Positions 5,192 through 62,749 are shown, counted from the stretch's first letter. The stretch is DNA of 64,000 nt from Candidatus Aenigmatarchaeota archaeon (GCA_023137195.1 JAGLPV010000015.1:27075-91074); one strand, 5' to 3'. Numbers and translations are program-made. Notes: generated from the sequence alone by a model not told the origin.

Positions 5192-6466
5192 TTATTTATT
5201 TTCTCCAACAATTTGATTTATTAACTTTATTATTTCTTCTTTCGTTTGATTCATTTGATTTTCACATATACCGTTTTTGTGTTTTAAGTTCTCAAATAAA
5301 GATAAATCAATATTTGGATTTTTAAGAAGACGTTCTTTAAGCTTCATTCGAAGAATATGATGTTTAAGTTTTCTTAATTCCTTTGCTTCTTGAACTTCGC
5401 ATTTATCCAAACGCTTTTCCTGTGTTAAATTTTCAATTTTGAGCAAAAACATAGAAAGATATTTATTTACTTCATTGGAAGGAAGATTAATATTTTCTAC
5501 GATATATTTTATAAATTCAAATAAACCATATCCTGCTTCATAATCAATTGGTCTTTGATTATATATTCCATCAATATAAGTTATTAAATTTCTATTAATT
5601 AAATAATTTTGAAAGAAAATATTTTTTATTTTTTTATCAGGACACTTTTTCATTACTTTATATACGTCTCGTCCTTGACGATGGATTTTACCTCTAAAAT
5701 CAAGATTTTTTTCTAACTCAATAAGTTTTTCTAACTTAATGTTTTTTTCATTACTACTATTTGGATTCCTGCCCCCAAAATCAATTATTTTCCATATTCC
5801 CTGTTCATCTAAAATAACATTATTGGAATGTAAATCTCCGTGAATGAAATCCTGATTGTGCATGACTGCAATTATTTTTCCTAACCGAGTAATTAGTTCT
5901 GGTTTTTCTAATAATATTTCTAATGGAATATCCCTTAGCTGAAATCCTTCAATTGGTTCCATAAGCAATTTTTGGGTCATTTCATTATTATAATACTCAT
6001 AAACTTTAGGTATATTATTTGGATGAATGCATCCAAAAATACGCATTCTTTTATATTCTTCCTCTTTTATTTCTTTTCCCATCAAAGGTATCTTTACAGC
6101 AATATTATGGCTATGTCCTTCTTTATCTTCAGCAGAAATACCAATCACTTCCCCTCTGCTTCCAGTCCCCAATTTGTTCGGTGGCTTAATAATATATTCT
6201 CCCCATTCTATATCCTCTTGGTCATTTTTCTGATTTAATGGTATTTCTCCGTTTTTTATTCCATAAACCAATTCTGTTATTTTTGAACCGCCCTGTAGAA
6301 AGTTTCCAAGCCACGTACCTTGCTCTTCTGTTTTTTTAGTCTTGTTTTCCTTTTTTTCTTTCAATAGTTTAAAAGTTTCAAAGACCCTTTCTTTAAATTC
6401 ATTTTCACTGTCTGGCAGGCTTTCAGTCAATTCAATAATTTTCATTTCTATTTCTTCCTTCCTCAT
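5192..6466 (-). CDS. Atypical protein kinase (Bud32/RIO-like core); paralog of 1608..3134
   Basis: LGTGSRGEV, IAVKI, LMEPIEG, IHGDLHSNNVIL, WKIIDFGG, in the same order as the other kinase. It shares C-terminal region motifs with it (NYLINRN versus SYLLNRD). Confidence 0.7.
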   Translation of the reverse strand: MRKEEIEMKIIELTESLPDSENEFKERVFETFKLLKEKKENKTKKTEEQGTWLGNFLQGGSKITELVYGIKNGEIPLNQKNDQEDIEWGEYIIKPPNKLGTGSRGEVIGISAEDKEGHSHNIAVKIPLMGKEIKEEEYKRMRIFGCIHPNNIPKVYEYYNNEMTQKLLMEPIEGFQLRDIPLEILLEKPELITRLGKIIAVMHNQDFIHGDLHSNNVILDEQGIWKIIDFGGRNPNSSNEKNIKLEKLIELEKNLDFRGKIHRQGRDVYKVMKKCPDKKIKNIFFQNYLINRNLITYIDGIYNQRPIDYEAGYGLFEFIKYIVENINLPSNEVNKYLSMFLLKIENLTQEKRLDKCEVQEAKELRKLKHHILRMKLKERLLKNPNIDLSLFENLKHKNGICENQMNQTKEEIIKLINQIVGENK

Positions 6467-6481
6467 ATTATTCTTGATGTT

Positions 6482-7879
6482 TTAATCGTCTGCTCCTTTA
6501 TATTTTTTAATAAGTTTAATTATTTCTTCTTCTGTTTTTTTTATTTCTTTTGGAGACATTGCCGCATCTACTGCTCTCTGATTTTCTTCATCCTGTTCGT
6601 CTATCTTTTTTTTATTATCTATTGCCCATTCATACCTATTTTTTACCAGTTTCTCATTACTTTCTATGGGCTTTACTTTTTCTTCATACGCAGATGGATT
6701 TATCCTCCTTAAATAATCCAATCGTTCAAGATGTTCTGGATTTATAGATGAATCTTCAAAATTACTCAAATCTCTGCATACATAATTGTCGTTTACAATA
6801 ATATTTGAATTTTCTTTTTTCAACAGAAATACAACATCATTGCGCAACAGTATTTTCCTTTTTTCTTCTGATGTATTTTCTGTTAATGCAACCGGCGCAT
6901 GTTCGCGATCTTTTTTTCTGATTTGATCTTCTACTGCATGGACATAATAATAAGGCAATTTATGTTCGTATATTCCTCTTGCTTTCGAATAATAGCGCTG
7001 TATTGTAGGATCATAATACGTGTCATCTATTTTCAGGAGGCTATGGTTGCGACCCATATCCTCATCAACAAGTATTTTTTCATCTCTAACAGACAAGATG
7101 TCTTTCCCCCTGTGGATTATCTCATCCATAGAAGACGTTGTCTTTTCCGGGTTGTCTATTTTTATTGTTTTTTTCTCTCCATCTCTTCTTCTTATTAGGT
7201 AAACTGCCTTAACCGAGTCTGTACAAATAAGTTTAGAAACAATTACTCTCGCATTGACAAATTTTATTCTTTTTGAATTTATGCCTTTTTCCAGGCATCT
7301 ATTTATCATTTCCTCTATTATTTCATTGCAGGGAATATCAATTTTCGATGCCTGTTTTTGAATATCCAATAATATTACGCTTATTTTTCCTTTATTCCCA
7401 CTGTTTCTCCCTGAACTGTTTTCGGCATTTGTTGGAATTGGTGGATTTTTTCCAGTAAGACTTTTCGAAGATGGTCTGAATTTTCCAGATAAGATATCCC
7501 CAATATTGGGACTTTTTTTCTCCAACTCCCGCGCCGCATCAGGATCTTTTTCTTTTAGTTCATTTAGTGAATGCTTAATTTTCTTATTCAATTCATTTAA
7601 TTTGTTAACATCTTTGGCTTTTTCCTTTTGTATGTTCTTAATATATTCATTTAATTGTTCTACTAGTTCTAGATGGTCTTTGAGAAATAGTTTTTTAACA
7701 GCAGGATATTCATTTATAATATGCACTGCATACATCGGATCTTTTTTTACAAGCGTTGCTGCCAGTCCAGAATCGTTTTTAAAAGCAGAGAGAATTGCTT
7801 TTTCTGCTGCCGGTTTGTCATCTGTCTTTAACGCCCCATTCTTTAACGCCAATTCTTCTATCATTTGCAATGAGTTCAT
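6482..7879 (-). CDS. Transglutaminase-like (Cys-His-Asp) domain protein with coiled-coil N-terminus
   Basis: IPCNEIIEEMINRCLE ... RIKFVNARVIV ... NHSLLKIDDTYYDPTIQRYYSK ... IVNDNYVCRDL is collinear with the C-terminal half of 3115..5184. Confidence 0.55.
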   Translation of the reverse strand: MNSLQMIEELALKNGALKTDDKPAAEKAILSAFKNDSGLAATLVKKDPMYAVHIINEYPAVKKLFLKDHLELVEQLNEYIKNIQKEKAKDVNKLNELNKKIKHSLNELKEKDPDAARELEKKSPNIGDILSGKFRPSSKSLTGKNPPIPTNAENSSGRNSGNKGKISVILLDIQKQASKIDIPCNEIIEEMINRCLEKGINSKRIKFVNARVIVSKLICTDSVKAVYLIRRRDGEKKTIKIDNPEKTTSSMDEIIHRGKDILSVRDEKILVDEDMGRNHSLLKIDDTYYDPTIQRYYSKARGIYEHKLPYYYVHAVEDQIRKKDREHAPVALTENTSEEKRKILLRNDVVFLLKKENSNIIVNDNYVCRDLSNFEDSSINPEHLERLDYLRRINPSAYEEKVKPIESNEKLVKNRYEWAIDNKKKIDEQDEENQRAVDAAMSPKEIKKTEEEIIKLIKKYKGADD

Positions 7880-7902
7880 AGTATTTTAATTACTGATTAA
7901 AT

Positions 7903-8006
7903 ATATCGCGGCACAAGTAATGCATGTATGTGGCGTGATATACTAGCAAAATACATAAATACTATATAAATACGGATTATCCTTTGTATTATTTATGTGT
8001 TTTGCT
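7903..8006 (+). repeat. Two-hairpin intergenic element, family 1, copy a
   Basis: Hairpin 1 pairs atatcgcggcac (7903-7914) with gtggcgtgatat (7930-7941). Hairpin 2 pairs agcaaaatacataaata (7945-7961) with tatttatgtgttttgct (7990-8006). A second copy lies at 42325..42512. Confidence 0.6.
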
Positions 8007-8190
8007 ATAATATATTTCTTAATTGTAAATAAATTATATATAATTATACAAAAATTATTTATACTCTCTATCCTAATTGAAACACTCTCACATCCTGATT
8101 TCCGACAGCACCATCAAACATAAAAATATAAACTACTTTTCTCGCATTTCATTTAACTCATCGAATTTTCAGAAAACATTATCTTTTCTT

Positions 8191-8261
8191 GTGCATTCCG
8201 TGCGTCATTCAACAAAGTTGAATGTGCAAAAAAGCAGAGCTTTTTTCGCATCCGGTGGATT
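8191..8261. repeat. Intergenic hairpin element, family 2, copy a
   Basis: Hairpins cattcaac-aaa-gttgaatg (8206-8224) and aaaaaagc-aga-gctttttt (8228-8246), ending in cgcatccggtggatt. An inverted homologous copy lies at 30561..30642. Confidence 0.5.
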
Positions 8262-8315
8262 AAAATAAGTTCCTCTTTTTATTCACATTTAAAAATATAA
8301 ATTATATAATCTTGT

Positions 8316-9692
8316 ATGGATATTTTGAATAACACAATAAAAAAAATAAGCCCATCACAAAAAGAAACAGACGAACTAAACTATTTGTTCCGGGAAATAA
8401 AAAAATACATCCTGTCTAAATACAATATAAATGCCGAATTAATGGGTTCTGTCGCAAAAAACACTTTTTTGAAAAACAACAACGACCTAGATATATTTAT
8501 CTTTTTTGACAAGTCGACTTCTCTTGATGATTTAGAAAAAGAAGCTCTTCAAATAGGCAAAGATGCATTTGAACATTTCGATGGCAGTTGGCAGATAGAC
8601 TATGCATCCCACCCATACACAAAAGGGAAAATAAGAAATTACAAAGTAGAGATAGTTCCCTGCTATAAGATAAAGTCCATAAAAGAGATGATTTCGGCGG
8701 TGGACAGGACTCCTTTCCATACAAAATACATCATAAAAAACTTAGAACCTGCCAGAAGAAAAGACGTGCTTTTATTAAAGCAGTTCTTAAAAACAATAAA
8801 CTGCTATGGCTCTGACCTAAAGACAAAAGGCTTTGCCGGATATTTGTGCGAATTGCTGATTATAAAATATAAGACATTTGAAGGCGTATTAAATGAGTTT
8901 TCAGACCTAAAGAGAAATACAATAATATCTCTGTCGAACTCTTTAAACAACACCAAAAAAATCATTGAAAAATTCGATGCTCCGTTTATCTTCCTGGACC
9001 CTGTTGACAAGAACAGGAATGTTGCTGCATCTCTTAGCATTGACGTTCTTTTAAGGACAAAATACTACAGCCAACAATACCTGCAAAACCCGGGCGAAAT
9101 ATATTTCAACCCAACAAAATTTGAAAAGAAAACCGCTTCAAAAAAATCGCTAAAATCCCTCCTGGAAAATCGTCATTTTTATGTGCTGTGCTTTGAAAAG
9201 CCGGATTTAATCGAAGATATATTATATCCGCAATTAGAAAGGTTCAAGAATTCCCTTGAAAAATATGTTTTATCTAAAGAATTTCATCTGAATGATTGCT
9301 TTTTTGACTGCTGCCCAGAAAGTAATTTGTGCATAATTGGATTTGATTTTTTGACAGATGATTTGTCCTGCTTTTGTCACAGGAGAGGACCGGATATTTT
9401 TGCCCAGAAAGAAAAGACAGAAGGGTTCTTAAATAAGCATAAAAATGCATATTTATCCAACGGTAATTATATGTGCTTTGAAAAAAGAAAAATAACAAAT
9501 GCATGTGATTTAATCAATTCTGTAAAGAAAAAGGAAGCGCAAAAACAGATTGCAATCCCTAAAGAGATAGAAAAAACATTAAATAAAAGTTTTTGCGTCC
9601 TGGACATCAAAAGAATAGAAGAATATGTGAAATCCAATAAAATCAGTTCTAATGTCATTTGCAGGAATATTGCTGGCGGAAAAACAATCTGA
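8316..9692 (+). CDS. cca: CCA-adding enzyme (archaeal class I tRNA nucleotidyltransferase)
   Basis: Class I nucleotidyltransferase motif GSVAKNTFLKNNNDLDIFIFF, then RTPFHTKYI. 458 aa, typical of the archaeal enzyme. Confidence 0.85.
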   Translation: MDILNNTIKKISPSQKETDELNYLFREIKKYILSKYNINAELMGSVAKNTFLKNNNDLDIFIFFDKSTSLDDLEKEALQIGKDAFEHFDGSWQIDYASHPYTKGKIRNYKVEIVPCYKIKSIKEMISAVDRTPFHTKYIIKNLEPARRKDVLLLKQFLKTINCYGSDLKTKGFAGYLCELLIIKYKTFEGVLNEFSDLKRNTIISLSNSLNNTKKIIEKFDAPFIFLDPVDKNRNVAASLSIDVLLRTKYYSQQYLQNPGEIYFNPTKFEKKTASKKSLKSLLENRHFYVLCFEKPDLIEDILYPQLERFKNSLEKYVLSKEFHLNDCFFDCCPESNLCIIGFDFLTDDLSCFCHRRGPDIFAQKEKTEGFLNKHKNAYLSNGNYMCFEKRKITNACDLINSVKKKEAQKQIAIPKEIEKTLNKSFCVLDIKRIEEYVKSNKISSNVICRNIAGGKTI

Positions 9693-10879: not shown

Positions 10880-11866
10880 ATGCAAATAAAATGTCTGGGG
10901 ATTGAGTCTACTGCACATACATTCGGAGCAGGCGTGGTGTCTTTTAACGGCGAGGATAAATTCGAGATTTTATCGAGTCAAAAGGCCTGCTACTTTGAAA
11001 AAGAAGGTATCCGACCTACCCTGGCAGCCCAGCACCATACGCAAAAAGCGCCGGAGACAATAAAGGTTGCATTGAAAGAAGCAGACATGAAAATGACAGA
11101 TATAGATATAATTGCTTATTCAATCGGTCCGGGAATGACCCCGTGCCTGATTGTCGGTTCAACAGCAGCCAAGATTCTGGCATTAAAGCACAAAAAGCCA
11201 TTGGTGGCTGTGAATCATTGTGTCGCCCACATAGATATTGCAAAAGAAATGACCGAATGCAAAGAGGCATTTGTCGCTGTTTTTGTCTCAGGAGGAAATT
11301 CCCAGATACTCTCGAAAACAGAAGGCAGATACAGGATTTTCGGGGAGACGCAGGATATTGCTGTTGGAAATGCAATAGACAAGTTTGCAAGAAGTGTTGA
11401 TTTAGGATTTCCCGGCGGTCCGGTAGTGGAAAAATTAGCAAAAGACGGCAAATACATAGGACTGCCTTATTCAGTAAAAGGTTGCGATTTCTCATTCGCC
11501 GGCATTGAGACCCAGGCAGAAAGGACATTAAAGACCAATAGAATTGAGGATGTATGCTATTCTATGCAGGAAGTTATGTTCTCTGCTATTTGCGAGAGTG
11601 CAGAGCGGGTTCTGGGACATTTAAAACTAAAGACTCTTGTTTTATGCGGCGGCGTTGCAAGAAACAAGACACTACAGGAAAAATTAAAGATAATGACCTC
11701 TGAGCGGGATGCAAAAGTGTTTTGTGTCCCTGGTGAATATGCGGGCGACAATGGGGCGATGATTGCAATTACCGGGATTAAAAATTATCTAAAGAAAATA
11801 AATTGTTTTGATAAAAAAGATATTCGCAAAACAGCAGTAATTCCAAAAATAAGGATTGACCAGTGA
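10880..11866 (+). CDS. kae1: tRNA N6-adenosine threonylcarbamoyltransferase Kae1 (stand-alone, not fused to Bud32)
   Basis: CLGIESTAHTFGAGVV, VNHCVAHI (His pair), SGGNSQ and GDNGAMIA motifs. 328 aa. Confidence 0.9.
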   Translation: MQIKCLGIESTAHTFGAGVVSFNGEDKFEILSSQKACYFEKEGIRPTLAAQHHTQKAPETIKVALKEADMKMTDIDIIAYSIGPGMTPCLIVGSTAAKILALKHKKPLVAVNHCVAHIDIAKEMTECKEAFVAVFVSGGNSQILSKTEGRYRIFGETQDIAVGNAIDKFARSVDLGFPGGPVVEKLAKDGKYIGLPYSVKGCDFSFAGIETQAERTLKTNRIEDVCYSMQEVMFSAICESAERVLGHLKLKTLVLCGGVARNKTLQEKLKIMTSERDAKVFCVPGEYAGDNGAMIAITGIKNYLKKINCFDKKDIRKTAVIPKIRIDQ

Positions 11867-11879
11867 AATGAGTTTGTTT

Positions 11880-12278
11880 TTATTTTTTACCGACTGTTTC
11901 TCTTAGTTCCTTTTGCATATCTATGACTTTTTGCCTTAGTTCAGAATACATTTTTTTGATGGACTCTTCCTGTTTGGTTAGTTGTTTTTGTCTCAGGGTT
12001 ATTTTATCCTTTTCTTCTTCAAGCTCTGTCTTAATTTCATCAAATGGTTTTTTCAACAGAATCATGCCGTAGAATCGATATACTTCTTTTGGCTTTTTTT
12101 TCAACTCTTCCATGGAAATTTCTATTCCTTTCATGTCAAGATTCATCTTCTCGTTTGTATACATTATATTTGAGAGCATCTTTTCATATTTTTGCAAAGC
12201 AACGATATTTTCCCTCAATTGGGATTCGCATTGTTTGGCTTCTGCCTGGTTTGTTTTTATGTGAATATCTTGTTCCAT
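11880..12278 (-). CDS. pfdB: Prefoldin beta subunit-like coiled-coil protein
   Basis: 132 aa with two heptad-rich helices flanking EVYRFYGMILLKKPFDEIKTELEE, which fits the beta-hairpin region of prefoldin beta. Confidence 0.6.
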   Translation of the reverse strand: MEQDIHIKTNQAEAKQCESQLRENIVALQKYEKMLSNIMYTNEKMNLDMKGIEISMEELKKKPKEVYRFYGMILLKKPFDEIKTELEEEKDKITLRQKQLTKQEESIKKMYSELRQKVIDMQKELRETVGKK

Positions 12279-12308
12279 AGACTAATATAATCAAAGAATA
12301 ATTTAAAT

Positions 12309-13331
12309 TTATCCATTTAGGTAATCTTTCCTTCTTGCAAATAGAGACAAAAACATTAGTCCTACAGATAAAAACATTACCGGGAACTCAGGAATTATCG
12401 TTAAGGGAAGAAAATCTATATTGTCTCCTCCACTTATATTGTGGGGTATTTCGCCAAATCCATCGCCGTCTGTGTCAGGATATGGATAATCCGAGAAGTA
12501 ATTTCCTCCAATGTATGGTCCCCCGATTATGTTTGGTCCTGTTGAGTTTGTTGTGTTCCAGGAATTGCTTCCTGTATCTATTGCATTGCATGTATTGTTG
12601 GCAAAGATATTGTTGAATATAAGATTAGAGTTGCAGTTTGATGTAAGGTAAACCCCTTTGAATGCATTATATGATACCTTGTTGTCATTCACTTCATTAT
12701 TGTCTGAAGAACTCTGGAATTTTATCCCCTGCATATTGTTGTAGATGGTGTTGTATTCTATGTCATTGTTATTGCTTTCTCCAACAAAAATACCGTCAAG
12801 AGTATTGTGGTGTATTTCATTATTATAGATGTGTCCTTGGTTTGTTTGCCAGAACTTGATGCCGTATCCAAACAGGTGATAATATATTTCATTGTCATAT
12901 ATTTTGGTATTTGTACTTCCAGTGAATAAAACGCCCGTCATTTTATTGTGGTATATTTCGTTATTGTGTATGGCTGCGTTGTTTGTATTATGGAATTCAA
13001 TAGCATAATCCCACATTTTGATTTCGCAGTTCTTTACAGTACTGTTTTCCATCTCAGAATATACAGCTGCGCTTATTACTGTGGTTAATTTGCCTTGTAT
13101 AGAATAATTGGCGGGGTCATAGAGCATATATCCTTTGCAGTCAAAGGTTACATTGTCTGCCTGTATATCTATGCATTTTCTTATAGGTCCTGTGATTATA
13201 TCTCCAGTCATGTAATATTCTCCAGGAGTAGTTATTGTTGTACAGCCGGTAATCGCTGTAGCAGCACTTGCCGTCTGCAAAAGCATAGAACTGATTATCA
13301 AAATAGTTAGAATAAATATTGTTTTTTTCAT
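12309..13331 (-). CDS. Secreted right-handed beta-helix (NosD/PbH1-like) protein with PEF-CTERM-like tail, paralog 1
   Basis: Signal peptide MKKTIFILTILIISSMLLQTASA. Repetitive N-rich beta-helix turns (NNEIYHN.., YNNEIHHN..). GPNIIGGPYIGGNYFSDY..DTDGDGFGE, then PEFPVMFLSVGLMFLSLFARRK. The track start 13340 is GTG; the ATG is at 13331. Confidence 0.75.
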   Translation of the reverse strand: MKKTIFILTILIISSMLLQTASAATAITGCTTITTPGEYYMTGDIITGPIRKCIDIQADNVTFDCKGYMLYDPANYSIQGKLTTVISAAVYSEMENSTVKNCEIKMWDYAIEFHNTNNAAIHNNEIYHNKMTGVLFTGSTNTKIYDNEIYYHLFGYGIKFWQTNQGHIYNNEIHHNTLDGIFVGESNNNDIEYNTIYNNMQGIKFQSSSDNNEVNDNKVSYNAFKGVYLTSNCNSNLIFNNIFANNTCNAIDTGSNSWNTTNSTGPNIIGGPYIGGNYFSDYPYPDTDGDGFGEIPHNISGGDNIDFLPLTIIPEFPVMFLSVGLMFLSLFARRKDYLNG

Positions 13332-13381
13332 AGATACCACTTATTGTTACCATTATTAGGTAGTAAATTATAAAAAGATAA

Positions 13382-14584
13382 TCATTTGAAGGAACAGCAT
13401 CCATTTGCTCTTCTTGCAAACAAAGACAAAAACACAATCCCGAATGATAAAAATATTGTCGGAACTTCAGGAATCAGAGGAAGATTATCCTGGCTGTATC
13501 CTCCCTCAATATCATAATGTGTTTCTCCGAAGCCGTCTCCATCTGTATCATTGCCGGGATAGTCCGAAAAGTAATTTCCTCCAATGTATGGTCCCCCGAT
13601 TATGTTTGGTCCGCTCTGGTTTACAGCATTCCATGTATTGGCACTCAGGTACTCTTTAGTATTGTTTACATTGTCAAAGTAATTGTTGTAAATCAGGTTG
13701 TTATTTGATCTATCTATGTGTATGCCATTCCACCCGTTGTTTTGCACGATATTGCTTCTTATTGTATTATCTTCACTTTCCTGTTTGACATATATTCCTT
13801 TCTTTATGTTATTTTTGACGATATTGCTTTTCACAAGATTGTTGGTGCAATAATTTTGCAGTATGATTCCGTATTGGTTTTCTGATGCGTTGTTGTCTAT
13901 CACGCTGTTTTGATTGTTTGAAGAAAATAAATATATTCCATTGTAATTGTCATACACTGTATTGTTTGATACTATGTTGTGAGTGGATAAGGTCAGGTAA
14001 ATGCCCTCGTCGTTATCATATACATCATTAGCCGATATGTTGTTGTTGCCGCAGTAAGACATATATATGCCTTTTTCGTTCAATAGCATAGTATTGTCTT
14101 TCACTATGCAGTTTTGTGAATATCCCATGCATATACCTTTGTTGTTTGATTCAACATTGTTGTTTTTTACCATTAGATTATCTGAATGCCATGTGTGGAT
14201 TCCAAAGTAGTTGTCTGAAACATTGTTGTCTGTCAATGTATTGTTGTCTGCGTTATTTAGGTATATTCCATATCTCCAGTCAGTGACTACGCAGTTTTTT
14301 ATTGTGATGTTTGTATCTGTTGCAGATGTTCTGTCAATGAGTATTCCTTTTGTCGTATAACTGTCGACCCCGTCAATTATATTGTTCTGGCAGTCCAGGA
14401 CGACGTTATTTGCTGTTATGTCAATACATACTGTATTTCCGGAATTAATTATATTACTGCTTAAGTAATATTCCCCGGGAGAAGTTATTGTTGTGCATGA
14501 AGTAATCGCTGTAGCAGCACTTGCTGTCTGCAAAAGCATAGAACTGATTATCAAAACAGTCAGAATAAATATTGTTTTTTTCAT
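13382..14584 (-). CDS. Secreted beta-helix protein with PEx-CTERM-like tail, paralog 2
   Basis: Near-identical signal peptide and first beta-helix turn, a longer repeat core, and the same GPNIIGGPYIGGNYFSDYPGNDTDGDGFGE block. The tail is PEVPTIFLSFGIVFLSLFARR. Confidence 0.75.
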   Translation of the reverse strand: MKKTIFILTVLIISSMLLQTASAATAITSCTTITSPGEYYLSSNIINSGNTVCIDITANNVVLDCQNNIIDGVDSYTTKGILIDRTSATDTNITIKNCVVTDWRYGIYLNNADNNTLTDNNVSDNYFGIHTWHSDNLMVKNNNVESNNKGICMGYSQNCIVKDNTMLLNEKGIYMSYCGNNNISANDVYDNDEGIYLTLSTHNIVSNNTVYDNYNGIYLFSSNNQNSVIDNNASENQYGIILQNYCTNNLVKSNIVKNNIKKGIYVKQESEDNTIRSNIVQNNGWNGIHIDRSNNNLIYNNYFDNVNNTKEYLSANTWNAVNQSGPNIIGGPYIGGNYFSDYPGNDTDGDGFGETHYDIEGGYSQDNLPLIPEVPTIFLSFGIVFLSLFARRANGCCSFK

Positions 14585-14650
14585 TGTATTACTCCTTATT
14601 GTTACTATTATAGGGTGGTAAATTATAAAAAGATGAGGGTATTGAAGCCA

Positions 14651-15505
14651 TTAAATAAGATTTCTTCTTGCAAACAGGGACAAAAACATTAGTCCTACGG
14701 ATAAAAACATTGCCGGGAATTCGGGAATAACCAGCGGAAGATAATCCCTGTTTTGTCCGCCAATATTATCATAAGGTGTTTCTCCAAATCCATCTCCGTT
14801 TTCGTCAACTCCATCATAGTCAGAGTAGTAATTTCCCCCGATATAAGGACCGCCTATTATATTTGGTCCTGTTGAGTTTGTTGTGTTCCAGAAGTTGTTT
14901 CCCTTTCCTGCATCCTTCCCGTCATGGTTATTGCCGGCAAGATAGTTGTTGTAGATTAGGTTTGAAAAGCAATTGCTTTCAACATAAATCCCGTTAATTT
15001 TATTGTAGGTTGCAATATTGTTTTTTATCTCATTTTCATTGGAATTATCGTTAAGTTTTATTCCATACTGGTTGTAGCTTGCGTTGTTGTCCGACAGGAC
15101 GTTGTATTTGCTTTCTTTCAAAAGAATGCCGCTTGCCTTATTTGAATATGGTTCATTGTTGTGGATTGTTCCGTTGTTTGCATTGTAAAAGACGATGCCG
15201 TTATTCCAGTCGCTGACAATGCAGTTTTTTATAGTAGTCATATTCTGGTTTGAATATATGCCATAAGTATTTGATTTGCCTGTTCCGTCAATAACATTAT
15301 CTCCACAGTCCAGAGTAATATTTTTTGCCGTTATTTCAATGCATTTTCCTGCACCAGAGTTATCAATTATGCTCTCATTCAAATAATAATGCTCGTTTTC
15401 TACATTGAGTGTTTGGCATTTGTTGATATTTTCCAAAGCATCAACATTTTGCAAAAGCAAAAGACTCATCATTAAGACACATGCGAGAAACGTCTTTTTA
15501 TTCAT
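14651..15505 (-). CDS. Secreted beta-helix protein with PEF-CTERM-like tail, paralog 3
   Basis: Divergent signal peptide (MNKKTFLACVLMMSLLLLQNVDA) but the same C-terminal block and PEFPAMFLSVGLMFLSLFARR. Its ATG overlaps the stop of the upstream paralog (ATGA at 15502-15505). Confidence 0.75.
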   Translation of the reverse strand: MNKKTFLACVLMMSLLLLQNVDALENINKCQTLNVENEHYYLNESIIDNSGAGKCIEITAKNITLDCGDNVIDGTGKSNTYGIYSNQNMTTIKNCIVSDWNNGIVFYNANNGTIHNNEPYSNKASGILLKESKYNVLSDNNASYNQYGIKLNDNSNENEIKNNIATYNKINGIYVESNCFSNLIYNNYLAGNNHDGKDAGKGNNFWNTTNSTGPNIIGGPYIGGNYYSDYDGVDENGDGFGETPYDNIGGQNRDYLPLVIPEFPAMFLSVGLMFLSLFARRNLI

Positions 15506-16500
15506 AATAAACCATTTTTTCTTCTTACAAACAGAGACAAAAATATTAGTCCTACTGATAAAAACATTACAGGGAACTCGGGAATTACCAGAGGAAGATA
15601 ATCGCTGTTACATCCCCATTTAATTTTATATGGTGTTTCTCCAAAACCATCTCCATTTGTATCATTGCCGGTATAATCCGAGAAATAATTTCCCCCGATG
15701 TATGGTCCGCCAATTATGTTTGGTCCTGTCTGGTTTGTGGTATTCCATGAGTTTTTCCCATAGCTACGGTCAGAAGCACTATATGTATTGTTGGCCACAT
15801 AGTTGTTGAATATCCTGTTACTTATCGAATCACAGGATATGTGAATCCCGTTCAAAGCATTAAAAGAGATATTATTATTCCTGATTTCATTTTTGTCGGA
15901 ATCTGTTTGAACTGATATTCCATTTTCGTTATTGTGGATTGTGTTGTTTTTTACATTGTTCTGGTTGCTCCGGGATAAATAAATGCCGCTTCCTTCGTTA
16001 GAATGCATTTCATTGTCATATATATTTCCCCAATATGTCTTCCATAAATCAAGACCATGAGCTATTGTAGACCCGTGTATTTCATTATCATGTATATTCG
16101 GATATGTGCATTCCACCAGACGAATACCTGACATTTTGCAATAAAGTATATCATTATAGCTTATATTTGCGTTCTCTGTTCCACCTAAAGTAATCCCGGA
16201 AGACCATCCCCGGATAACGCAATTGGTGATAGTAACATCATCTTTTTCGGAAAATATCCCTGTGGTGGTGGAAAAGAACCCATTATAACGAATCATGTGA
16301 CCTTCGCAGTTTAATGTAACATTGTCTGCATTTATTTCAATGCATTTTTGCACACAGTTTGTGGTTATATCTCCTGACAGGTAATATTCTCCCGGAGAAG
16401 TTATTTTAGTACATGAAGTAATTGCTGTGGCGGCACTTGCCGTCTGCAAAAGCATAGAACTGATTATCATAACAGTCATAACAAATATTGTTTTTTTCAT
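15502..16500 (-). CDS. Secreted beta-helix protein with PEF-CTERM-like tail, paralog 4
   Basis: MKKTIFVMTVMIISSMLLQTASAATAITSC..., a beta-helix core, GPNIIGGPYIGGNYFSDYTGNDTNGDGFGE and PEFPVMFLSVGLIFLSLFVRRK. Confidence 0.75.
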   Translation of the reverse strand: MKKTIFVMTVMIISSMLLQTASAATAITSCTKITSPGEYYLSGDITTNCVQKCIEINADNVTLNCEGHMIRYNGFFSTTTGIFSEKDDVTITNCVIRGWSSGITLGGTENANISYNDILYCKMSGIRLVECTYPNIHDNEIHGSTIAHGLDLWKTYWGNIYDNEMHSNEGSGIYLSRSNQNNVKNNTIHNNENGISVQTDSDKNEIRNNNISFNALNGIHISCDSISNRIFNNYVANNTYSASDRSYGKNSWNTTNQTGPNIIGGPYIGGNYFSDYTGNDTNGDGFGETPYKIKWGCNSDYLPLVIPEFPVMFLSVGLIFLSLFVRRKNGLL

Positions 16501-16630
16501 TGTTATTCACCTTATATTCTGATACAATATTAAAAATTCTGCACAATAGCAGGAGTTTTATTGTAAATACCATTTATTGTTACTATTATATGGTGGTAAA
16601 TTATAAAAACATTCCTACCCGCGGACATAA

Positions 16631-36691: not shown

Positions 36692-37567
36692 TCAGACAAA
36701 ACAAGATAGGATGAGTCCCAGAACCACGAAAACAGACAGATTAATTGTTTTTTGTATCTTTAATGTATCAATACCACCTGCTTTTAATTTTTCAATATCC
36801 TGGTGTGTTATTGGTCGAAAAGGAGAGATGACCTCTTTTTTATTCATGTAATTGTTCATCATCTTCTGACGGAAAATTGAATTTATGAACATTGGAATAT
36901 TCTGCCTCGTGAATTTTTCTTTTGTTCGGATTACAAACTCCGCGGGAATCATGCCGGCTCGCAACTGGTTTGTCGGGCACCATATTGAAAAAGAATCTGT
37001 GATTACATTAAATGCGAAAACAGCAAATAGCAAGACCAGGGAATTTTCCAGTGAAGCAATTGAATTCAATGCAATGAAAAAATACATATCTGCAAGGAAA
37101 TAAAGCAGCATTTTGTTTTTATTCAACAATTTCATTGTTTTGTTTTTGCCCATCCTGTTCAAAAAAACCTCTATGCAGAAGAATAAAAGGGCAGATAAAA
37201 TAAAGGAGATTCTTTGGTTTTTCAATACGACCATGAAAAGGGAATTGTAAAAGAACATTGCAAGAAAAAAAGAATAATAATATTCTATCTGCTTTCTTGT
37301 TTTGCTGGGGTATTTTACCTGCTCCTCTTCTTTGTAGAATATTGTTTTTTTGGAAAGAGAGTATAGAAATACATAAGCAAAATACAAAATTACTGTGTTT
37401 TTAAGTACGCTTTCTGCGATGTATGGGTTTGGGTTAAAGAAGAACAAAACCAAGACTCCGGTAAAATAAAGGGTTGCTGTCTTTCTGCCCATTACTTTTA
37501 GAAAAACCAAAATCAGGCAAATCAATATTAATTTTGCCATGACAATAAATAATGGTGGTATAATCAT
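36692..37567 (-). CDS. Polytopic membrane protein, last gene of the radical-SAM peptide operon
   Basis: 291 aa with about 7 hydrophobic helices and a soluble basic insert before the last helix. Its ATG lies 3 nt after the stop of the upstream rSAM gene. No family motif recognised. Confidence 0.5.
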   Translation of the reverse strand: MIIPPLFIVMAKLILICLILVFLKVMGRKTATLYFTGVLVLFFFNPNPYIAESVLKNTVILYFAYVFLYSLSKKTIFYKEEEQVKYPSKTRKQIEYYYSFFLAMFFYNSLFMVVLKNQRISFILSALLFFCIEVFLNRMGKNKTMKLLNKNKMLLYFLADMYFFIALNSIASLENSLVLLFAVFAFNVITDSFSIWCPTNQLRAGMIPAEFVIRTKEKFTRQNIPMFINSIFRQKMMNNYMNKKEVISPFRPITHQDIEKLKAGGIDTLKIQKTINLSVFVVLGLILSCFV

Positions 37568-45092: not shown

Positions 45093-45683
45093 ATGGTGCC
45101 GCATTTAAAAGGAATTCTGGATCAAATTATAGATATATCTAATTTAAAACTTGGGATTTACCAGTCTAAAACAAAATATATCGCGGAATTCGGCTTTTAT
45201 TCCATGATTGCTTATTTTACGCCTATTCTTTTTATGCATCATCAGTTGTACACAGGTGTACTTGTAAATTCTATGCTTATTGCTGGTGCGCTATATATGA
45301 AAGGGAAAAATCTGATTCCTCTGATAGTACTTCCGAGCGTGGGTGCCTTGTCACAAGGGTATTTGTTTGGCTCTCTTGGTGTTTACCTGTTTTATATGCT
45401 GCCTTTTATATGGGTCGGCAATGCACTCCTTATATTTTTAATAAAAACAGTTTACCTGAAAAAGAAAAAACATTTCGTCTCAGGGATATTATTTGGAAGC
45501 GCATTGAAAAGCGTTTTTTTATTTGGTTGTGCTTTTGCCTTATTTTCTGCAGGTATGGTGCCAAAAATGTTCCTTGTTGCATTTGGAACTATGCAATTCA
45601 CAACTGCCTTTTTTGCAGGAATGGTCATATGGCCATTGAATGAATTGCGCTTAAAGCTAAATAAAAAAGCATTATCCGGATAA
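45093..45683 (+). CDS. Polytopic membrane protein (unknown function)
   Basis: 196 aa with five to six hydrophobic helices. No motif recognised. Confidence 0.45.
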   Translation: MVPHLKGILDQIIDISNLKLGIYQSKTKYIAEFGFYSMIAYFTPILFMHHQLYTGVLVNSMLIAGALYMKGKNLIPLIVLPSVGALSQGYLFGSLGVYLFYMLPFIWVGNALLIFLIKTVYLKKKKHFVSGILFGSALKSVFLFGCAFALFSAGMVPKMFLVAFGTMQFTTAFFAGMVIWPLNELRLKLNKKALSG

Positions 45684-48396: not shown

Positions 48397-50895
48397 TTAA
48401 TAACTATAAAGTGACGTTTCTTCTGACTCATCCAAAATACTTGTTTTTTCTGATTCAGTATTGTTGTCGATATTATTTTCTTTTATTAACTTAAATATCT
48501 TTATTTCTTCATTGTCAAAGACTTTTTCCAAAAAAGGAATATTGTGACCATCAAAAATATACAACCTTGCAAAATTTGAAATCCCGGGAGTTTTTGTCGG
48601 ATATGGAATGTATGTGCCGTATTTTGAAAACAGCATGCAGAAATCAGCTACATTGCTTGTTTCGTTCGGAGCTAAATCAACAAGACCATCTTGAGTGCAT
48701 AAGTATTTTATTTTCATATTTTGCATTCCCTGCGTCAGCATTATATTTCCCATCAAACCGCCGTTTTCATTCAAAGGAACCGAAATGATGCCTCCTCCGA
48801 AATTAAATATTGCAACAGTTATGTTGTTTTTCTTTTCCAGTTGTGGTTGAGGTAATGGCGAAAAATAATTCTCTGGCTTCTTGAATAAGTTGTCCTCTTC
48901 ATAATAGTCGTTCTGTCCGGCATAATGACCTATCCTGCTCATCATAGGGTACTTTCCAATTAATGTCCTGTCTACTACCATATAGTCTGCCTGGTACTCT
49001 ATCATCAAATCTTTTATGTGAGTTATGTTTGTATCTGTAAACATTTGTGCAAGATGCTCATTTACTGTATTATTAGCATTCATTCCATCTGCTGTACTTC
49101 TTCTGTTACCTGCCGTCTGGAACCAATATCCATAATCCCACCAACTCATGATTGCCGCATCTTCGGGCGTATTGTGTTTCATCCACTTCATTGATTCCTG
49201 CCATTTTGAATCAAATGTAAGCCCTGTGTATTTGTTTACAACATAAGCAGAAGAAATATTTACAGAGATAAAACACACGGCGATAAAAATAACAGCAATT
49301 GCTTTTGCAAAGGGAATTATATTAATTGTCTCATCCTCTTCATTTTGAACATCTTCTTTTTTTGAAGAAGAACGTTCTTTTATTTTTTCAAAAAAATCAA
49401 TTGTTTTTTGGTTTTTAATTAAACTCCGGCTTCCCTCATATAAATATGAAGCACCCATCCCTGCCATTATACAAAAAGGAGCTCCCAGAATAAACATGAC
49501 TCTTATGTACTTTAATGATCCGTGGATGGATGAAGCCATCCATAAAACAATTAAAATGATGCCAATATTTGTACTGTAAAATGAGATAAAAAACACAAAA
49601 GCAATCAGACCGTAATAAAAATTAAAGTAACCTAAAAGAGGAACAGCAATCAATGCAAGATAAAAGATATCTTTATTTTTATATTCTCCTCTCTTTTTAT
49701 ACAACTCATAAAATATAAATATCAAAAATATCCATAATAGAGAAGTTACGCTAAAATAAGACAGGATTGTTCCTGGTATGTTGTAGGACTTGTCCTGATT
49801 GAACAAAGGAGTATTCAAAACCTGTTGCATATAGCTTATTCCTGAAGCAACACTAAATTGATTTTCTATTTGCGCAAGAGATCCAGGGGCATTTTCTGCA
49901 ACAGTCGTGGTAGACACACCCTTTTCTAAAGCCACAAGCCCTGTTACTGACTTAATTAAACCAGCACATGAAGGAATAAAAAAAGAGCCGATAAATACCA
50001 TAAAAATAACGCCCGTTATTGACACAGGAATAATGTATTTGTGCATGGATTTGTCTTTTACTTTCTTCTGGGCAAAATAAACAAAACAAATCAACGCGGA
50101 TAATCCTAAAAGCAATTGTCCATTTGCATATAATGGAGAAACTGAAATTCTTTTAAATCCCAGCAAAAAAGGAAGAATAACTCCCATAACGGCAATTGGA
50201 ATCTGTGATTTTAAAAGTAAAGAAATATTCTTTTTTTTAAACAGGAGAAGAATAAAATAAAATCCAATAATCAAAAGCATAATTGGATTTGCAAGACCGC
50301 TTATTACATTTAAAAAACAAAAACACATTCCTCCAAGCATTGAATTGAAAATGGTGTCCTTCTTAAATGATTTTACAATATAATACATTGTCATTATTAT
50401 AAAAATACCTGCCAGAGGCTCTTTTTCGATAAACCCCGCAGATGTTCTGTATAATATGGCTGGAGTTGTCGCATAAAGAAATGCGGCGAAAAGCCCTGTT
50501 TTTTTATTCCTCAGTTGGGATGCCAGCAAATAAATCGCCAGAACCTGCAATGTTCCCATAAGCGCCGGGTAAATCCATGCAAATTTATAATATGTAAAAA
50601 AGAATTTGAAAAAAACAGAATACAAAATTGCAGGAATATAATATGTCAATGCCAGGTTTTCATGAGGATCTCTTCCATTAGGATAATACTGCATCAAATC
50701 ATTATCCGGTAGATGAAATTCATTTTCAATTAAATGCAAACTTATCCTGTACATATAAAATGGATCTAATGCACGAAAGCAATCTACTCCTTCAACACAC
50801 GTATCCATTAAATCCATCGGTATGAGTCTAATCCATAAAGAAACAAGCAAAACAAAAACAAGAAGCCCGACATAGAGATATTTGTTTTTATTCAT
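48397..50895 (-). CDS. aglB: Archaeal oligosaccharyltransferase AglB (STT3 family)
   Basis: A multi-TM N-terminal half and the WWDYGYW motif (MSWWDYGYWF) at the start of the soluble C-terminal domain. 832 aa. Confidence 0.9.
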   Translation of the reverse strand: MNKNKYLYVGLLVFVLLVSLWIRLIPMDLMDTCVEGVDCFRALDPFYMYRISLHLIENEFHLPDNDLMQYYPNGRDPHENLALTYYIPAILYSVFFKFFFTYYKFAWIYPALMGTLQVLAIYLLASQLRNKKTGLFAAFLYATTPAILYRTSAGFIEKEPLAGIFIIMTMYYIVKSFKKDTIFNSMLGGMCFCFLNVISGLANPIMLLIIGFYFILLLFKKKNISLLLKSQIPIAVMGVILPFLLGFKRISVSPLYANGQLLLGLSALICFVYFAQKKVKDKSMHKYIIPVSITGVIFMVFIGSFFIPSCAGLIKSVTGLVALEKGVSTTTVAENAPGSLAQIENQFSVASGISYMQQVLNTPLFNQDKSYNIPGTILSYFSVTSLLWIFLIFIFYELYKKRGEYKNKDIFYLALIAVPLLGYFNFYYGLIAFVFFISFYSTNIGIILIVLWMASSIHGSLKYIRVMFILGAPFCIMAGMGASYLYEGSRSLIKNQKTIDFFEKIKERSSSKKEDVQNEEDETINIIPFAKAIAVIFIAVCFISVNISSAYVVNKYTGLTFDSKWQESMKWMKHNTPEDAAIMSWWDYGYWFQTAGNRRSTADGMNANNTVNEHLAQMFTDTNITHIKDLMIEYQADYMVVDRTLIGKYPMMSRIGHYAGQNDYYEEDNLFKKPENYFSPLPQPQLEKKNNITVAIFNFGGGIISVPLNENGGLMGNIMLTQGMQNMKIKYLCTQDGLVDLAPNETSNVADFCMLFSKYGTYIPYPTKTPGISNFARLYIFDGHNIPFLEKVFDNEEIKIFKLIKENNIDNNTESEKTSILDESEETSLYSY

Positions 50896-50929: not shown

Positions 50930-52390
50930 TTATTCGTCTTTTAATTTATACCTGTGCACCCAATCGTAATGGATGCCCCCGTCCCTTGAAAAAATGCGAC
51001 CTTCTTCGCTTAATTTTGTGAAATATTGTTCTGACCTTTTTTCTGTCCAGTTCATGAGCTCCACTATGTTTGCAATGATATCCTCTTTTGTTTTATCTGA
51101 GATTAAAATCGCTCTTCTGATATCCAATGGGATTTCGACCTTCCATTCCCTTTCTTTTAGATTGTATTTTTTTTCTTCATCAATCTTTTCTATGACCTGG
51201 GTTATATTTTTCTCAAAAGTATTGATTACATTTTTTTGTATTTTTTGATTATTCTTTTCAAAGGCAGTATAATAAGAAGTTATTCTTGCGCATTGTATTT
51301 CAATCAAATCCATGTCGTAAATGTTATTAAATATTATTTCTTCTGTTTTGTTCATCCATGAGCTGATTTTTAATATTGAAGAATCAAGAACCTGATTGAA
51401 TGATTTTGAAGTTAGTTGCTTATCTCCCAAACAGCCGTAATATATCAAAGAATTTTGCAGGGCGGTATTGTTCGCGATGTCCTTTTCTCCATAAACATTA
51501 ATCCCGTCTATTGCATATTTGTATTCAGATTCCCGGATATTGTTGTCTTTTATTTTTGAAGCAACATTCCATGATAAGACATTGTAGTTCTTTAAGATTT
51601 CCCTGTTTTTTCGCATGGATTCAAATTCCTTTATTGTCCCGTTTAATTCATTTAAAATGCCTACATGCTCAAGAGTAATTCCATAATCTGAATTATTCAA
51701 ATACTTGTCAAAAACATCCACATCTTTTTTTGTCCGGGAATCGTATATATAAGAAGCTCCTAATCCATCTACATACGTCTTTCTATCCAAAATATCCGAG
51801 CCAATGTAAGGAGATAAAAGGGAATCTGAGACATGGTTGTCTCTCATGCTTAATGAAGATATTTCTGTAATGCTTTTTTGCATCTCTTTTAGCGTCAGGA
51901 CAGGATACTTTGGGTTGTTGTCTTTTGAAATTTTTAATGTGGTCGCCTCCGGCTTACTCATAAGGGAAAATAATTCATAATAGTTTTTATTGTGTTCTAG
52001 TTTACTGCCTGTTATTTTTTTTATTTTAATAGAATAAGGTATGTCTGAATCCAATTTTGTTTCATACGGGGCGATTATTATTGTCATTAAATCATTCCTA
52101 GATAATTCTGCATAAAAATTATATAACTTAAAACCACTATCTGATTCCATGCATTTGTTTCTTTTAAATATAAACTGTATTTTTTTAATTAGTAGTTTTG
52201 AAGGTTTTTTTATCAATTCCAGATATCCTTCTATTGCCTTGATTTTTTTTCCGGATCTTAATTTTGCATTTGCCTGCGAATAGAGCTTTTGATTTAGAGG
52301 TAGTTTTTTGATTGCTGTGGAATCATAATTTTCATAAAAATTCTTTTTTCCTGAATATCCTATTTCTTCAATTAATTCTTCAAATGACAT
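50930..52390 (-). CDS. Hypothetical protein translationally coupled to mcm
   Basis: 486 aa with no recognisable motif. Its ATG (52388-52390) sits 1 nt after the mcm stop codon (52392-52394). Confidence 0.5.
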   Translation of the reverse strand: MSFEELIEEIGYSGKKNFYENYDSTAIKKLPLNQKLYSQANAKLRSGKKIKAIEGYLELIKKPSKLLIKKIQFIFKRNKCMESDSGFKLYNFYAELSRNDLMTIIIAPYETKLDSDIPYSIKIKKITGSKLEHNKNYYELFSLMSKPEATTLKISKDNNPKYPVLTLKEMQKSITEISSLSMRDNHVSDSLLSPYIGSDILDRKTYVDGLGASYIYDSRTKKDVDVFDKYLNNSDYGITLEHVGILNELNGTIKEFESMRKNREILKNYNVLSWNVASKIKDNNIRESEYKYAIDGINVYGEKDIANNTALQNSLIYYGCLGDKQLTSKSFNQVLDSSILKISSWMNKTEEIIFNNIYDMDLIEIQCARITSYYTAFEKNNQKIQKNVINTFEKNITQVIEKIDEEKKYNLKEREWKVEIPLDIRRAILISDKTKEDIIANIVELMNWTEKRSEQYFTKLSEEGRIFSRDGGIHYDWVHRYKLKDE

Positions 52391-52391
52391 A

Positions 52392-54443: not shown

Positions 54444-54469
54444 ACTACAAAAATAAAATTTATTAAATC

Positions 54470-55249
54470 TTATTTTTTTAAATCACCTCCACTCAAATAG
54501 ATATAATTTGCTTCTAAATATAAGTCCCTTAGTGTTGTTTCTTTATTATTTTCTGATGATTTGTCGCGTAATATTCCTGTTAAATATATTTCTTTGCCAA
54601 TATTCTGCTCAAATAAAGGATTGACCAAATCACCATTTAACTCAATATCAATATCTTTTTTTTTAATCCCTATTTTATTGTTTTTATAAGTCATTTGCCC
54701 TTTTAGATTTTGAGTATTTCTATATTTTTTCATTTCTTGTGTGAAACCACGCTTGTTTCCACATTCGCACATAAATGGCTTTTTTACGAACATTTCATCC
54801 TGTATTACTATTTTTTTAGCGTTGCAGGCGGGACAGACGAATGTTATGTAAATAATGCGGGGTTTGACTCCATATACTTTCTTTATTGTCCCTTCAAACG
54901 AGACAAATTTATTCAAGTTCTCGCATATTAAGTCCTTTATTTTCAGGATTTTGTGCTTAGGGAGATTAAATGCCATTACTGCTCTTTTTCCATCAACTCC
55001 AAAATCAATTTTCTCCAGCGCACCATTACTGCATTCAAACCAATCCTCTGGTCGGTTGATGAGGGCGTCTGACAATTTTGTGCTATACTTGTCTAAGTCT
55101 GCAAAATCAACGAGAAGGGGTTTTCCGGCAGAAAAACTCTTCCGGGCTTTTTTTAAGTATTTTTTTTCAAAAAAAGAAGTGAGCTGTTCTACTAATTCGT
55201 CATCGTATGCATTTTCTTCCTCAGAAAATAGATTTGACTCAGCCCCCAT
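54470..55249 (-). CDS. Stand-alone MCM N-terminal domain protein (no AAA+ module)
   Basis: The first ~67 aa are almost identical to MCM. The remainder is collinear but diverged through the Zn finger (CPACNAK..CECGN) and the OB region up to LEANY, where the ORF stops. The track start 55252 is GTG; the ATG is at 55249. Confidence 0.7.
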   Translation of the reverse strand: MGAESNLFSEEENAYDDELVEQLTSFFEKKYLKKARKSFSAGKPLLVDFADLDKYSTKLSDALINRPEDWFECSNGALEKIDFGVDGKRAVMAFNLPKHKILKIKDLICENLNKFVSFEGTIKKVYGVKPRIIYITFVCPACNAKKIVIQDEMFVKKPFMCECGNKRGFTQEMKKYRNTQNLKGQMTYKNNKIGIKKKDIDIELNGDLVNPLFEQNIGKEIYLTGILRDKSSENNKETTLRDLYLEANYIYLSGGDLKK

Positions 55250-55332
55250 CACAATATATAGATATTAAGATTAAAAAATTAGTGTTTTGTTACAATGTCC
55301 GGCCTATAATTATTATTGACCAAGAGACTTCT

Positions 55333-60792: not shown

Positions 60793-60849
60793 ATCTTGTA
60801 TTATTAGTGAGAGTTTTAAATGTTTTTTCTTCTTTGTTATCCTAAATAA

Positions 60850-61566: not shown

Positions 61567-61575
61567 CTTGCTATG

Positions 61576-62718: not shown

Positions 62719-62749
62719 ATTTATAAAAATATATCAATTATTTATAGCT

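Follow-up and report, generated by a model that had tools for sequence, protein, structure and literature searches.

A stretch of 64,000 nucleotides (nt) from a Candidatus Aenigmatarchaeota archaeon (GCA_023137195.1, JAGLPV010000015.1:27075-91074), referred to below as the window, carries between positions 12309 and 16620 a tandem array of four consecutive minus-strand genes, here named G1 to G4, that encode secreted beta-helix proteins. An initial annotation had picked out these paralogs, and open reading frames (ORFs), Pfam matches and alignment agree on them. The ends of the genes resemble one another more closely at the DNA level than the cores do, and we regard it as likely that the array is a lineage-specific tandem expansion of a surface beta-helix family, the end modules of which have been homogenised by gene conversion while the cores are old. 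The array recurs at 99.6-99.9% identity in an NCBI metagenome-assembled genome (MAG) and five ENA metagenome assemblies; the places where it is found are GCA_030639115.1 (118-kb contig DAOWDG010000010.1), an ENA scaffold of 211 kb and several contigs from cold-seep metagenomes. In NCBI, near-identical proteins bear the name Candidatus Aenigmarchaeota. In addition, four Logan-assembled runs, all of them cold-seep metagenomes, contain 81-99% of its words. This recurrence in independent assemblies and runs indicates that the array is real.

All coordinates given below for the genes and elements of the array are on the minus strand. G1 (12309..13331; ORF, Pfam NosD at 6.6e-33, Beta_helix, alignment) encodes 340 residues counted from the ATG, a secreted NosD/CASH-type beta-helix with an IPEFP-transmembrane (TM)-RRK tail. 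The ATG at 13331 fits the paralogs, and an alternative GTG at 13340 in the ORF listing would add three residues. G2 (13382..14584; ORF, Pfam, alignment) has 400 residues, the longest core and a tail of ancestral type, IPEVPTIFLS..ARR, which is also found in orthologs from other genera. G3 (14651..15505; ORF, alignment) encodes 284 residues; its signal peptide differs from those of the other three, and it lacks a separate promoter. The start codon of G3 overlaps the stop codon of G4 (ATGA), and from this arrangement G3 is probably co-transcribed with G4. G4 (15502..16500; ORF, Pfam, AlphaFold2 model) encodes 332 residues. The proteins thus span 284-400 residues, and core identity and ORFs alike bear out the earlier remark that their cores differ in length and sequence.

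The secretion and anchor features of the four proteins are readily recognised. Each begins with a Sec-type signal peptide, which in G1, G2 and G4 has MKKTIFILTVLIISSMLLQTASA ahead of the cleavage site and AT behind it (..TASA/AT). Each protein has four conserved N-terminal cap cysteines, 7-9 N-x-S/T sequons and an acidic mature part. In the alignment, all four share a GPNIIGGPYIGGNY[FY]SDY..GDGFGE..D.LPL cap, behind which come IPE[FV]P, a hydrophobic stretch of about 15 residues and RR. The cap block of G1 (12450..12539; GPNIIGGPYIGGNYFSDY..GDGFGE) forms the end of its Pfam NosD domain and has equivalents in G2-G4. The segments coding for the tail lie, by alignment, at 12312..12419 in G1, 13385-13492 in G2, 14654-14749 in G3 and 15505-15606 in G4, and that of G1 reads DFLPLTIIPEFP, then the TM segment, then RRKDYLNG. 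A lipobox reading of I-T-S-C at residues 27-30 was rejected: the Cys lies about 11 residues past the hydrophobic core of the signal peptide and after the ASA/A site, and it is itself one of the four conserved cap cysteines, from which we infer that it is not a lipobox.

The fold is evident from both profile and structure comparisons. Pfam NosD (PF05048) matches all four proteins at 114-186 bits (E ~1e-33 to 1e-54, cut-off 23.6), as do Beta_helix (PF13229) and the parallel beta-helix repeat TIGR03804. The proteins are not NosD proper, as TIGR04247 gives 58-94 bits against a cut-off of 300 and no nos operon surrounds the genes, which have purE, prefoldin and Kae1 as neighbours. The AlphaFold2 model of G4 (mean pLDDT 89.7, pTM 0.84) shows a right-handed beta-helix, and residues 311-328 form a helix at the C-terminus. 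Its top Foldseek matches are AlgG, NosD, AlgE, DFA-IIIase and phage tailspikes, at 11-17% identity and with probability 1.00 for AlgG, NosD and AlgE; these neighbours are carbohydrate-binding or -processing helices, AlgG and AlgE being epimerases. The proteins resemble the NosD/CASH surface proteins of methanogens and anaerobic methanotrophic (ANME) archaea in their Pfam NosD and Beta_helix domains, in sharing the fold of AlgG, NosD and AlgE, and in the cap, which in those relatives reads NIIGGPYIGGNYWSDY..D.DGDGIGD.PY..DYLPL and is a motif widespread among NosD-domain proteins. They differ from them in being short (284-400 residues), without PKD or other extra domains, and in their anchor, many relatives having PGF-CTERM (the tail of P0042, for instance, matches Pfam PGF-CTERM). 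From these likenesses and the sequons, G1-G4 may well bind surface glycans, serving attachment to a host or a substrate, and would be N-glycosylated. The same window contains an AglB/STT3-type oligosaccharyltransferase gene at 48397-50895 (TIGR04154, 147 bits), as well as a large cluster of glycosyltransferase and nucleotide-sugar genes at 52000-64000. Both would fit with heavily N-glycosylated surface proteins.

The contrast between ends and cores is apparent at the nucleotide level. Over the first 75 nt, G1, G2 and G4 are 91-96% identical, much as the initial annotation had judged by eye for the first ~80 nt of three genes, and the identity remains high to about +115; G3 is only 56-59% identical to the others there. 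This homogenised 5' coding module, delimited by nucleotide and synonymous identity (13217..13331 in G1, 14470-14584 in G2, 16386-16500 in G4), encodes the signal peptide and the first mature residues. Core identity among the paralogs is 44-58%, compared with 66-76% for the cap block, which includes a 44-nt identical run between G1 and G2, and 69-85% for the tails. The 3' tail-coding segments are thus similar, although "nearly identical", as they had been described, overstates the case. Furthermore, Logan unitigs break exactly at the shared modules, confirming exact repeats of at least 31 nt.

Since conserved protein sequence alone could yield similar ends, identical codons were counted at residues conserved between paralogs and compared with the expectation from codon usage; this synonymous-codon test replaced a permutation test on the longest identical run, which ignores constraint at the protein level and was dropped. 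Over 5' codons 1-39, 75-82% of codons are identical among G1, G2 and G4, against 39-40% expected (P 6e-7 to 3e-5). In the tail the corresponding values are 62-76% against 34-36%, for all six pairs (P 4e-5 to 6e-3). In the core, 35-62% are identical where 42-47% are expected; four of the six pairs are not significant, and G1-G4 (P 0.033) and G3-G4 (P 0.005) lie modestly above expectation, so that core synonymous sites are largely saturated. The excess of end identity over core identity therefore survives proper measurement, and in their DNA the cores are older than either end, with a strong and recent effect at the 5' end and a weaker one at the 3' end.

The array site is syntenic across several genomes. 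In the window it lies between purE and the prefoldin/Kae1/TraB/CCA genes. In QMVB01 (L007), a single family member of 476 residues stands upstream of prefoldin-(ATPase)-Kae1-TraB-CCA, and in the two-gene array of GCA_023142775.1 (assemblies L086 and L087) tandem members of 255 and 285 residues, A and B, stand upstream of prefoldin-Kae1-TraB. Copy number at the site is thus one, two and four, respectively. In DNA, the genes that flank the site in L007 and L086 share only 71-77% identity with their counterparts in the window, which places these genomes in different genera or species.

Comparison across these genomes reveals a discordance between modules. In the maximum-likelihood tree of the cores, the window paralogs interleave with proteins of other genomes: G1 and G4 group with the L007 ortholog (92/94), G3 groups with P0133/P0136, and L086B groups with P0007 (100/99), whereas L086A falls in another part of the tree. 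The C-terminal module (cap plus tail, ~80 residues) gives a tree that clusters by genome, with G1-G4 together (84/88) and L086A with L086B (99/96). In approximately unbiased (AU) tests on the core data, monophyly is rejected for G1-G4 (p 0.0009) and for L086A plus L086B (p 0.0035); on the C-terminal data, it is the core groupings that are rejected (p 0.0014, 0.016 and 0.028). G2 adds a further discordance, in that it joins G1 and G4 at the 5' end but is an outlier in core and tail. The sister array repeats the pattern, as its two genes are 42-62% identical over most of their length and match over the last 240 nt at 233/240 positions in assembly L086, against 216/240 in assembly L087. Of the 24 differences in L087, 17 fall within one 27-nt patch (L087 729-755, in the C-terminal linker of gene A), which is the only difference from L086 over 2.5 kb; the L086 version of the patch equals that of gene B, and it reflects either a polymorphic micro-conversion or a mis-path through an assembly bubble. 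Identity confined to end modules, recurring independently in two genomes, is the classical signature of gene conversion. Together with the synonymous sites, the trees and the sister-array 3' module uphold the proposal that the ends evolve in concert around diverged cores.

Upstream of the genes lies a second shared element. The promoter and 5' untranslated region block of G1 (13335..13380) contains a BRE/TATA-like TTTTTATAATTTAC, followed by ATAATGGTAACAATAAGTGG with a Shine-Dalgarno-like GGTG, and alignment and motif search locate the corresponding block of G2 at 14589..14634. The copy of G4 (16556..16612) is split from the ATG by an extra leader and is kept in the relative L093 and the L007 ortholog. 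The motif TTTTTATAATTTACYACC..ATAATrGTAACAATAA occurs exactly three times in the 64-kb window (13359-13376, 14614-14631 and 16592-16609); a copy is missing at G3 because the start codon there overlaps the stop of G4. Block similarity among the window paralogs, counted from the alignment, is ~81-89%. The single-copy L007 ortholog carries a block that is ~77% identical (TTTTTATAATTTACTAC..ATAATAGTAA..ATAAGTG), which indicates that the similarity among the paralogs is largely inherited and held by selection as a family-specific regulatory element. The suggestion of shared upstream regions at three genes accordingly stands, but the idea that they too were homogenised gives way to largely ancestral conservation. 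The insert specific to the G4 leader (~62 nt, 16501..16565) comprises a hairpin at 16537-16554, a T-run and a second TATA-like TTTTTAATATTG. It is conserved in L093, which is 94% identical, and could by its sequence be an attenuator or an alternative promoter.

Variation within the population was looked for in the assemblies and in Logan contigs. The six independent assemblies that share the array have the same four genes in the same order, at the identity given above and with no indels. One contig (L096) seemed to join the G2 promoter to the G4 body; its end (window 16069) abuts its start (16068), which identifies it as an assembly cycle through the shared 5' repeat. In the G1 core of L004, 13 single-nucleotide polymorphisms (SNPs), six of them non-synonymous, cluster in 270 nt (12777-13044, codons 96-185), against four in the other 3.6 kb. 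A conversion tract derived from a paralog was rejected here, as no paralog could be the donor, and the cluster is strain variation, probably a strain-level recombination tract. Two Logan contigs (X5 and X6) of 90-95% identical relatives, with joints from 13478 to 12406 and from 12317 to 13410, hint at a G1 ortholog with a G2-like tail, a weak lead given a depth of 2.5-4x and pieces less than 95% identical. No genuine recombinant or cassette-type variant was found among the assemblies and Logan contigs examined.

The tails of G1-G4 are tripartite, consisting of a P-E-F-type motif (IPEFP in G1, G3 and G4, IPEVP in G2), a TM helix of 15-16 hydrophobic residues and a basic RR(K) cluster at the extreme C-terminus, after which the chain ends within 3-10 residues. 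The TM segment has a conserved family-specific form, FLSxGxxFLSL, and IPE.P is invariant across genera, with variable flanks. In archaea, the PEF-CTERM sorting domain TIGR03024 is paired with archaeosortase C, TIGR03762, according to the passages of PMC5244752, PMC9723798 and PMC6098224 that cite Haft et al. (2012). The window tails are alike in their extreme C-terminal P-E-F(/V), hydrophobic helix and basic cluster, and unlike in scoring nothing on TIGR03024, in being confined to a single family and in belonging to a DPANN archaeon. They also have the longer motif [IV]PE[FV]P(T)I in common with bona fide PEF-CTERM tails, at the same position, and reach 5.5-10.8 bits on a profile of four PEF sequences, a score attained by 0-2 of 200 composition-matched shuffles. 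Such bona fide tails (IPEFPTIA..RRK) terminate NosD-type beta-helix proteins at 5511-6704 of a Halobacteriota MAG (L037; ...EEIPEFPTIAIPAAMILGLVFIMQRRRK) and at 7332-8633 of a Methanolobus MAG (L082; ...EQIPEFPTIALPMLAIMGIALVFVRRKE). The combination of beta-helix and PEF tail hence exists in methanogen-type archaea that share cold-seep habitats with the DPANN archaeon of the array.

A sorting enzyme was searched for by precomputed Pfam (PF09721), by NCBIfam on polytopic candidates (including TIGR04178 and TIGR03762) and by a CSGxxS motif scan. These agree with the previous impression that the window holds no archaeosortase gene, and none of its polytopic membrane proteins matches an exosortase or archaeosortase model in NCBIfam. 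The genes at 36692-37567 and 45093-45683 were considered as hidden archaeosortases and rejected, having no NCBIfam matches, the first only a weak Arc_PepC match. An ANME-1 exosortase (L046 11177-12010) served as a control and scores 134 bits on 8TM_EpsH, which demonstrates that the library does contain relevant models. As a query, an ANME-1 exosortase (L020) retrieved exosortases of ANME/methanogen type and one match labelled as bacterial, none from Aenigmarchaeota. At the L046 locus (11177-12803, ANME-1 MAG RXIE01000171.1), the exosortase gene (exo_archaeo signature, 60 bits) adjoins one for a 217-residue protein with a PIPELP, TM and RRKG end, a compact sortase-substrate pair in an ANME-1 archaeon, and the locus also has two CPBP intramembrane proteases.

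Two other accounts of the similar ends were weighed against gene conversion between neighbours. Purifying selection might act on signal peptide, cap and anchor, with no recombination between copies. The end modules are indeed functionally constrained, the promoter block is kept even in the single-copy ortholog of another genus, and the cap motif is widespread in NosD-domain proteins. Such selection would not make synonymous sites alike at the ends and not in the cores, however, nor place G2 with G1 and G4 at one end only, nor sort C-terminal modules by genome in conflict with the core tree, each topology being rejected by AU tests on the other's data, nor leave a ~200-nt, almost perfectly identical 3' tract in the sister array; this account is largely refuted and seems to us highly improbable. 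Alternatively, the array could be an active variation system, with cores exchanged between conserved ends by frequent recombination inside populations, along the lines of the variable surface-protein cassette array envisaged at the outset. Conserved ends around diverged cores are the architecture of such systems, copy number varies between genera, and the low-depth Logan contigs hint at an exchanged tail. Yet the collinear assemblies without indels, the artefactual nature of the only chimeric contig and the donor-less SNPs of L004 leave an actively switching cassette system without support. Furthermore, the cores are anciently diverged and orthologous across genera, and all four genes are complete and expressible, with no silent promoterless cassettes apart from the operonic G3. 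We thus hold active switching to be very unlikely. Gene conversion of the end modules remains our preferred explanation, with several points weighing against it: the groups in the AU tests were named after the trees had been seen, the tail codon statistics rest on 19-25 codons per pair, and the near-perfect 3' repeat of L086 could be partly inflated by assembly, as L087 differs in the 27-nt patch.

The nature of the tail is a separate question. It may be a plain type-I membrane anchor, in which a juxtamembrane IPE[FV]P precedes the TM helix and a positive-inside RR and is never cleaved, no archaeosortase being involved. Several negative results tell in favor of such an anchor and against a sorting signal. 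At E<=10, neither whole proteins nor isolated tails match TIGR03024 (cut-off 23 bits), nor do G1-G4 match the other NCBIfam C-terminal sorting models, PGF-CTERM (PF18204), for which a control PGF tail scored 24.6 bits, or PEP-CTERM. The TIGR03024 negative is meaningful, as canonical PEF-CTERM tails score in the same library (L037 30.5 bits, L082 34.9 bits, also when whole proteins are scanned); true PEF tails were used as this control because PGF tails had matched the Heimdall-CTERM and Loki-CTERM models of NCBIfam rather than PGF-CTERM. The model is a narrow one, though, as weaker true-looking tails (L017) also fall under its cut-off. Nor does the tail behave as a portable signal. A search of 1.84 billion cluster representatives with a tail profile, biased to the family-specific TM segment so that weak heterologous tails could be missed, returned eight matches, all in the beta-helix family and none on an unrelated protein. 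No further tail-bearing ORF was found in the window or in the fetched flanks of the contig and the 211-kb scaffold. A region-limited homolog search with the G4 tail, which had three candidates and matched only the query itself, is uninformative on this point. A tail found on one family, with a conserved TM segment, could be a family-specific anchor. In addition, no exosortase or archaeosortase was found in ~119 kb of contiguous sequence (DAOWDG010000010.1 5588-118337 plus ~6 kb of the 211-kb scaffold), and according to a review, archaeosortases occur in a subset of Euryarchaeota (PMC6098224). On the other side, [IV]PE[FV]P(T)I takes the position that it has in the bona fide PEF-CTERM tails on beta-helix homologs, IPE.P is invariant where its flanks vary, and the uniformity of tails within a genome is what co-evolution with a recognition enzyme would give. 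Hence the initial assignment to the PEF-CTERM class stands for motif and layout but not for the curated model. A plain anchor is a serious possibility that falls somewhat short of even odds, and a role of the tail as more than a membrane anchor, namely as a PEF-CTERM-like signal to an enzyme of archaeosortase type, is a comparably tentative proposition.

Taken together with the preferred explanation of the ends, a picture of the system can be sketched. One cell-surface family would have expanded in tandem at a conserved locus of a cold-seep member of the Aenigmarchaeota (DPANN), presumably a tiny archaeon of symbiotic type. Its proteins would be exported by a Sec-type signal peptide, fold into right-handed beta-helices of the carbohydrate-binding or -processing CASH/NosD type and be held on the cell by the IPE[FV]P, TM helix and RR/K tail. 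The paralog cores would be older than the separation of the genera. In each genome, non-reciprocal recombination (gene conversion) between neighbours, along with purifying selection, would keep two modules uniform, the signal-peptide module at the 5' end and the cap and tail module at the 3' end, possibly since every copy has to work with a single machinery for export and anchoring. A more speculative extension, which we consider rather unlikely, is that the IPE[FV]P-FLSxGxxFLSL-basic tail is an uncatalogued, Aenigmarchaeota-specific signal read by a divergent archaeosortase, possibly of the short form, whose gene would lie in another part of the genome; in that case the paralogs would stay matched to one machinery through gene conversion, and the cores, older than the genera, would form a glycan-binding repertoire that sets the host cells for attachment.

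Homogenised ends around distinct middles are a familiar arrangement. In Helicobacter pylori, gene conversion maintains a pattern in babA, babB, babC and other Hop paralogs in which the 5' and 3' ends are nearly identical and the middles diverge. As in those paralogs, the export and anchor ends of G1-G4 appear to be homogenised by gene conversion as the exposed, putatively ligand-binding middle diverges. The array differs from them in being archaeal and tandem and in consisting of membrane-anchored beta-helices; ongoing switching or phase variation is not seen in it, and its conversion tracts are short, with lengths of ~115 nt (5') and ~200-250 nt (3'). The array is a clear instance of an established evolutionary pattern, though a fairly ordinary one. 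It joins known kinds, namely archaeal CASH/NosD surface proteins, PEF-like C-terminal anchors and concerted evolution of paralog ends, and does not overturn current understanding. The locus is nonetheless a clean archaeal example of module-wise concerted evolution, in which ends are homogenised and exposed cores stay distinct. DPANN archaea depend on contact with host cells, and their attachment proteins and surface-anchoring machinery are poorly known; from that perspective, a compact, syntenic family of surface beta-helices that varies between one, two and four copies among genera is of value. Likewise, a PEF-CTERM-like tail that escapes the curated model is a useful starting point from which searches for archaeosortase-type sorting in DPANN could be widened.

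Finally, a few features were noticed in the surroundings of the array. In the 94%-identical relative (L093), a 543-residue ORF with no Pfam match (558-2189) is inserted between EamA and purE, just upstream of the array. On the 211-kb scaffold (L098), a DDE_Tnp_1 transposase gene (13804-15234) lies just past the end of the 118-kb NCBI contig and probably explains the contig break. Upstream of the window on the same contig, two genes (L100 16104-17696 and 18134-19642) encode secreted proteins of ~500 residues with lipobox-like N-termini (..ISGC and ..LSGC), which suggests that the archaeon probably uses lipobox-type anchoring as well.

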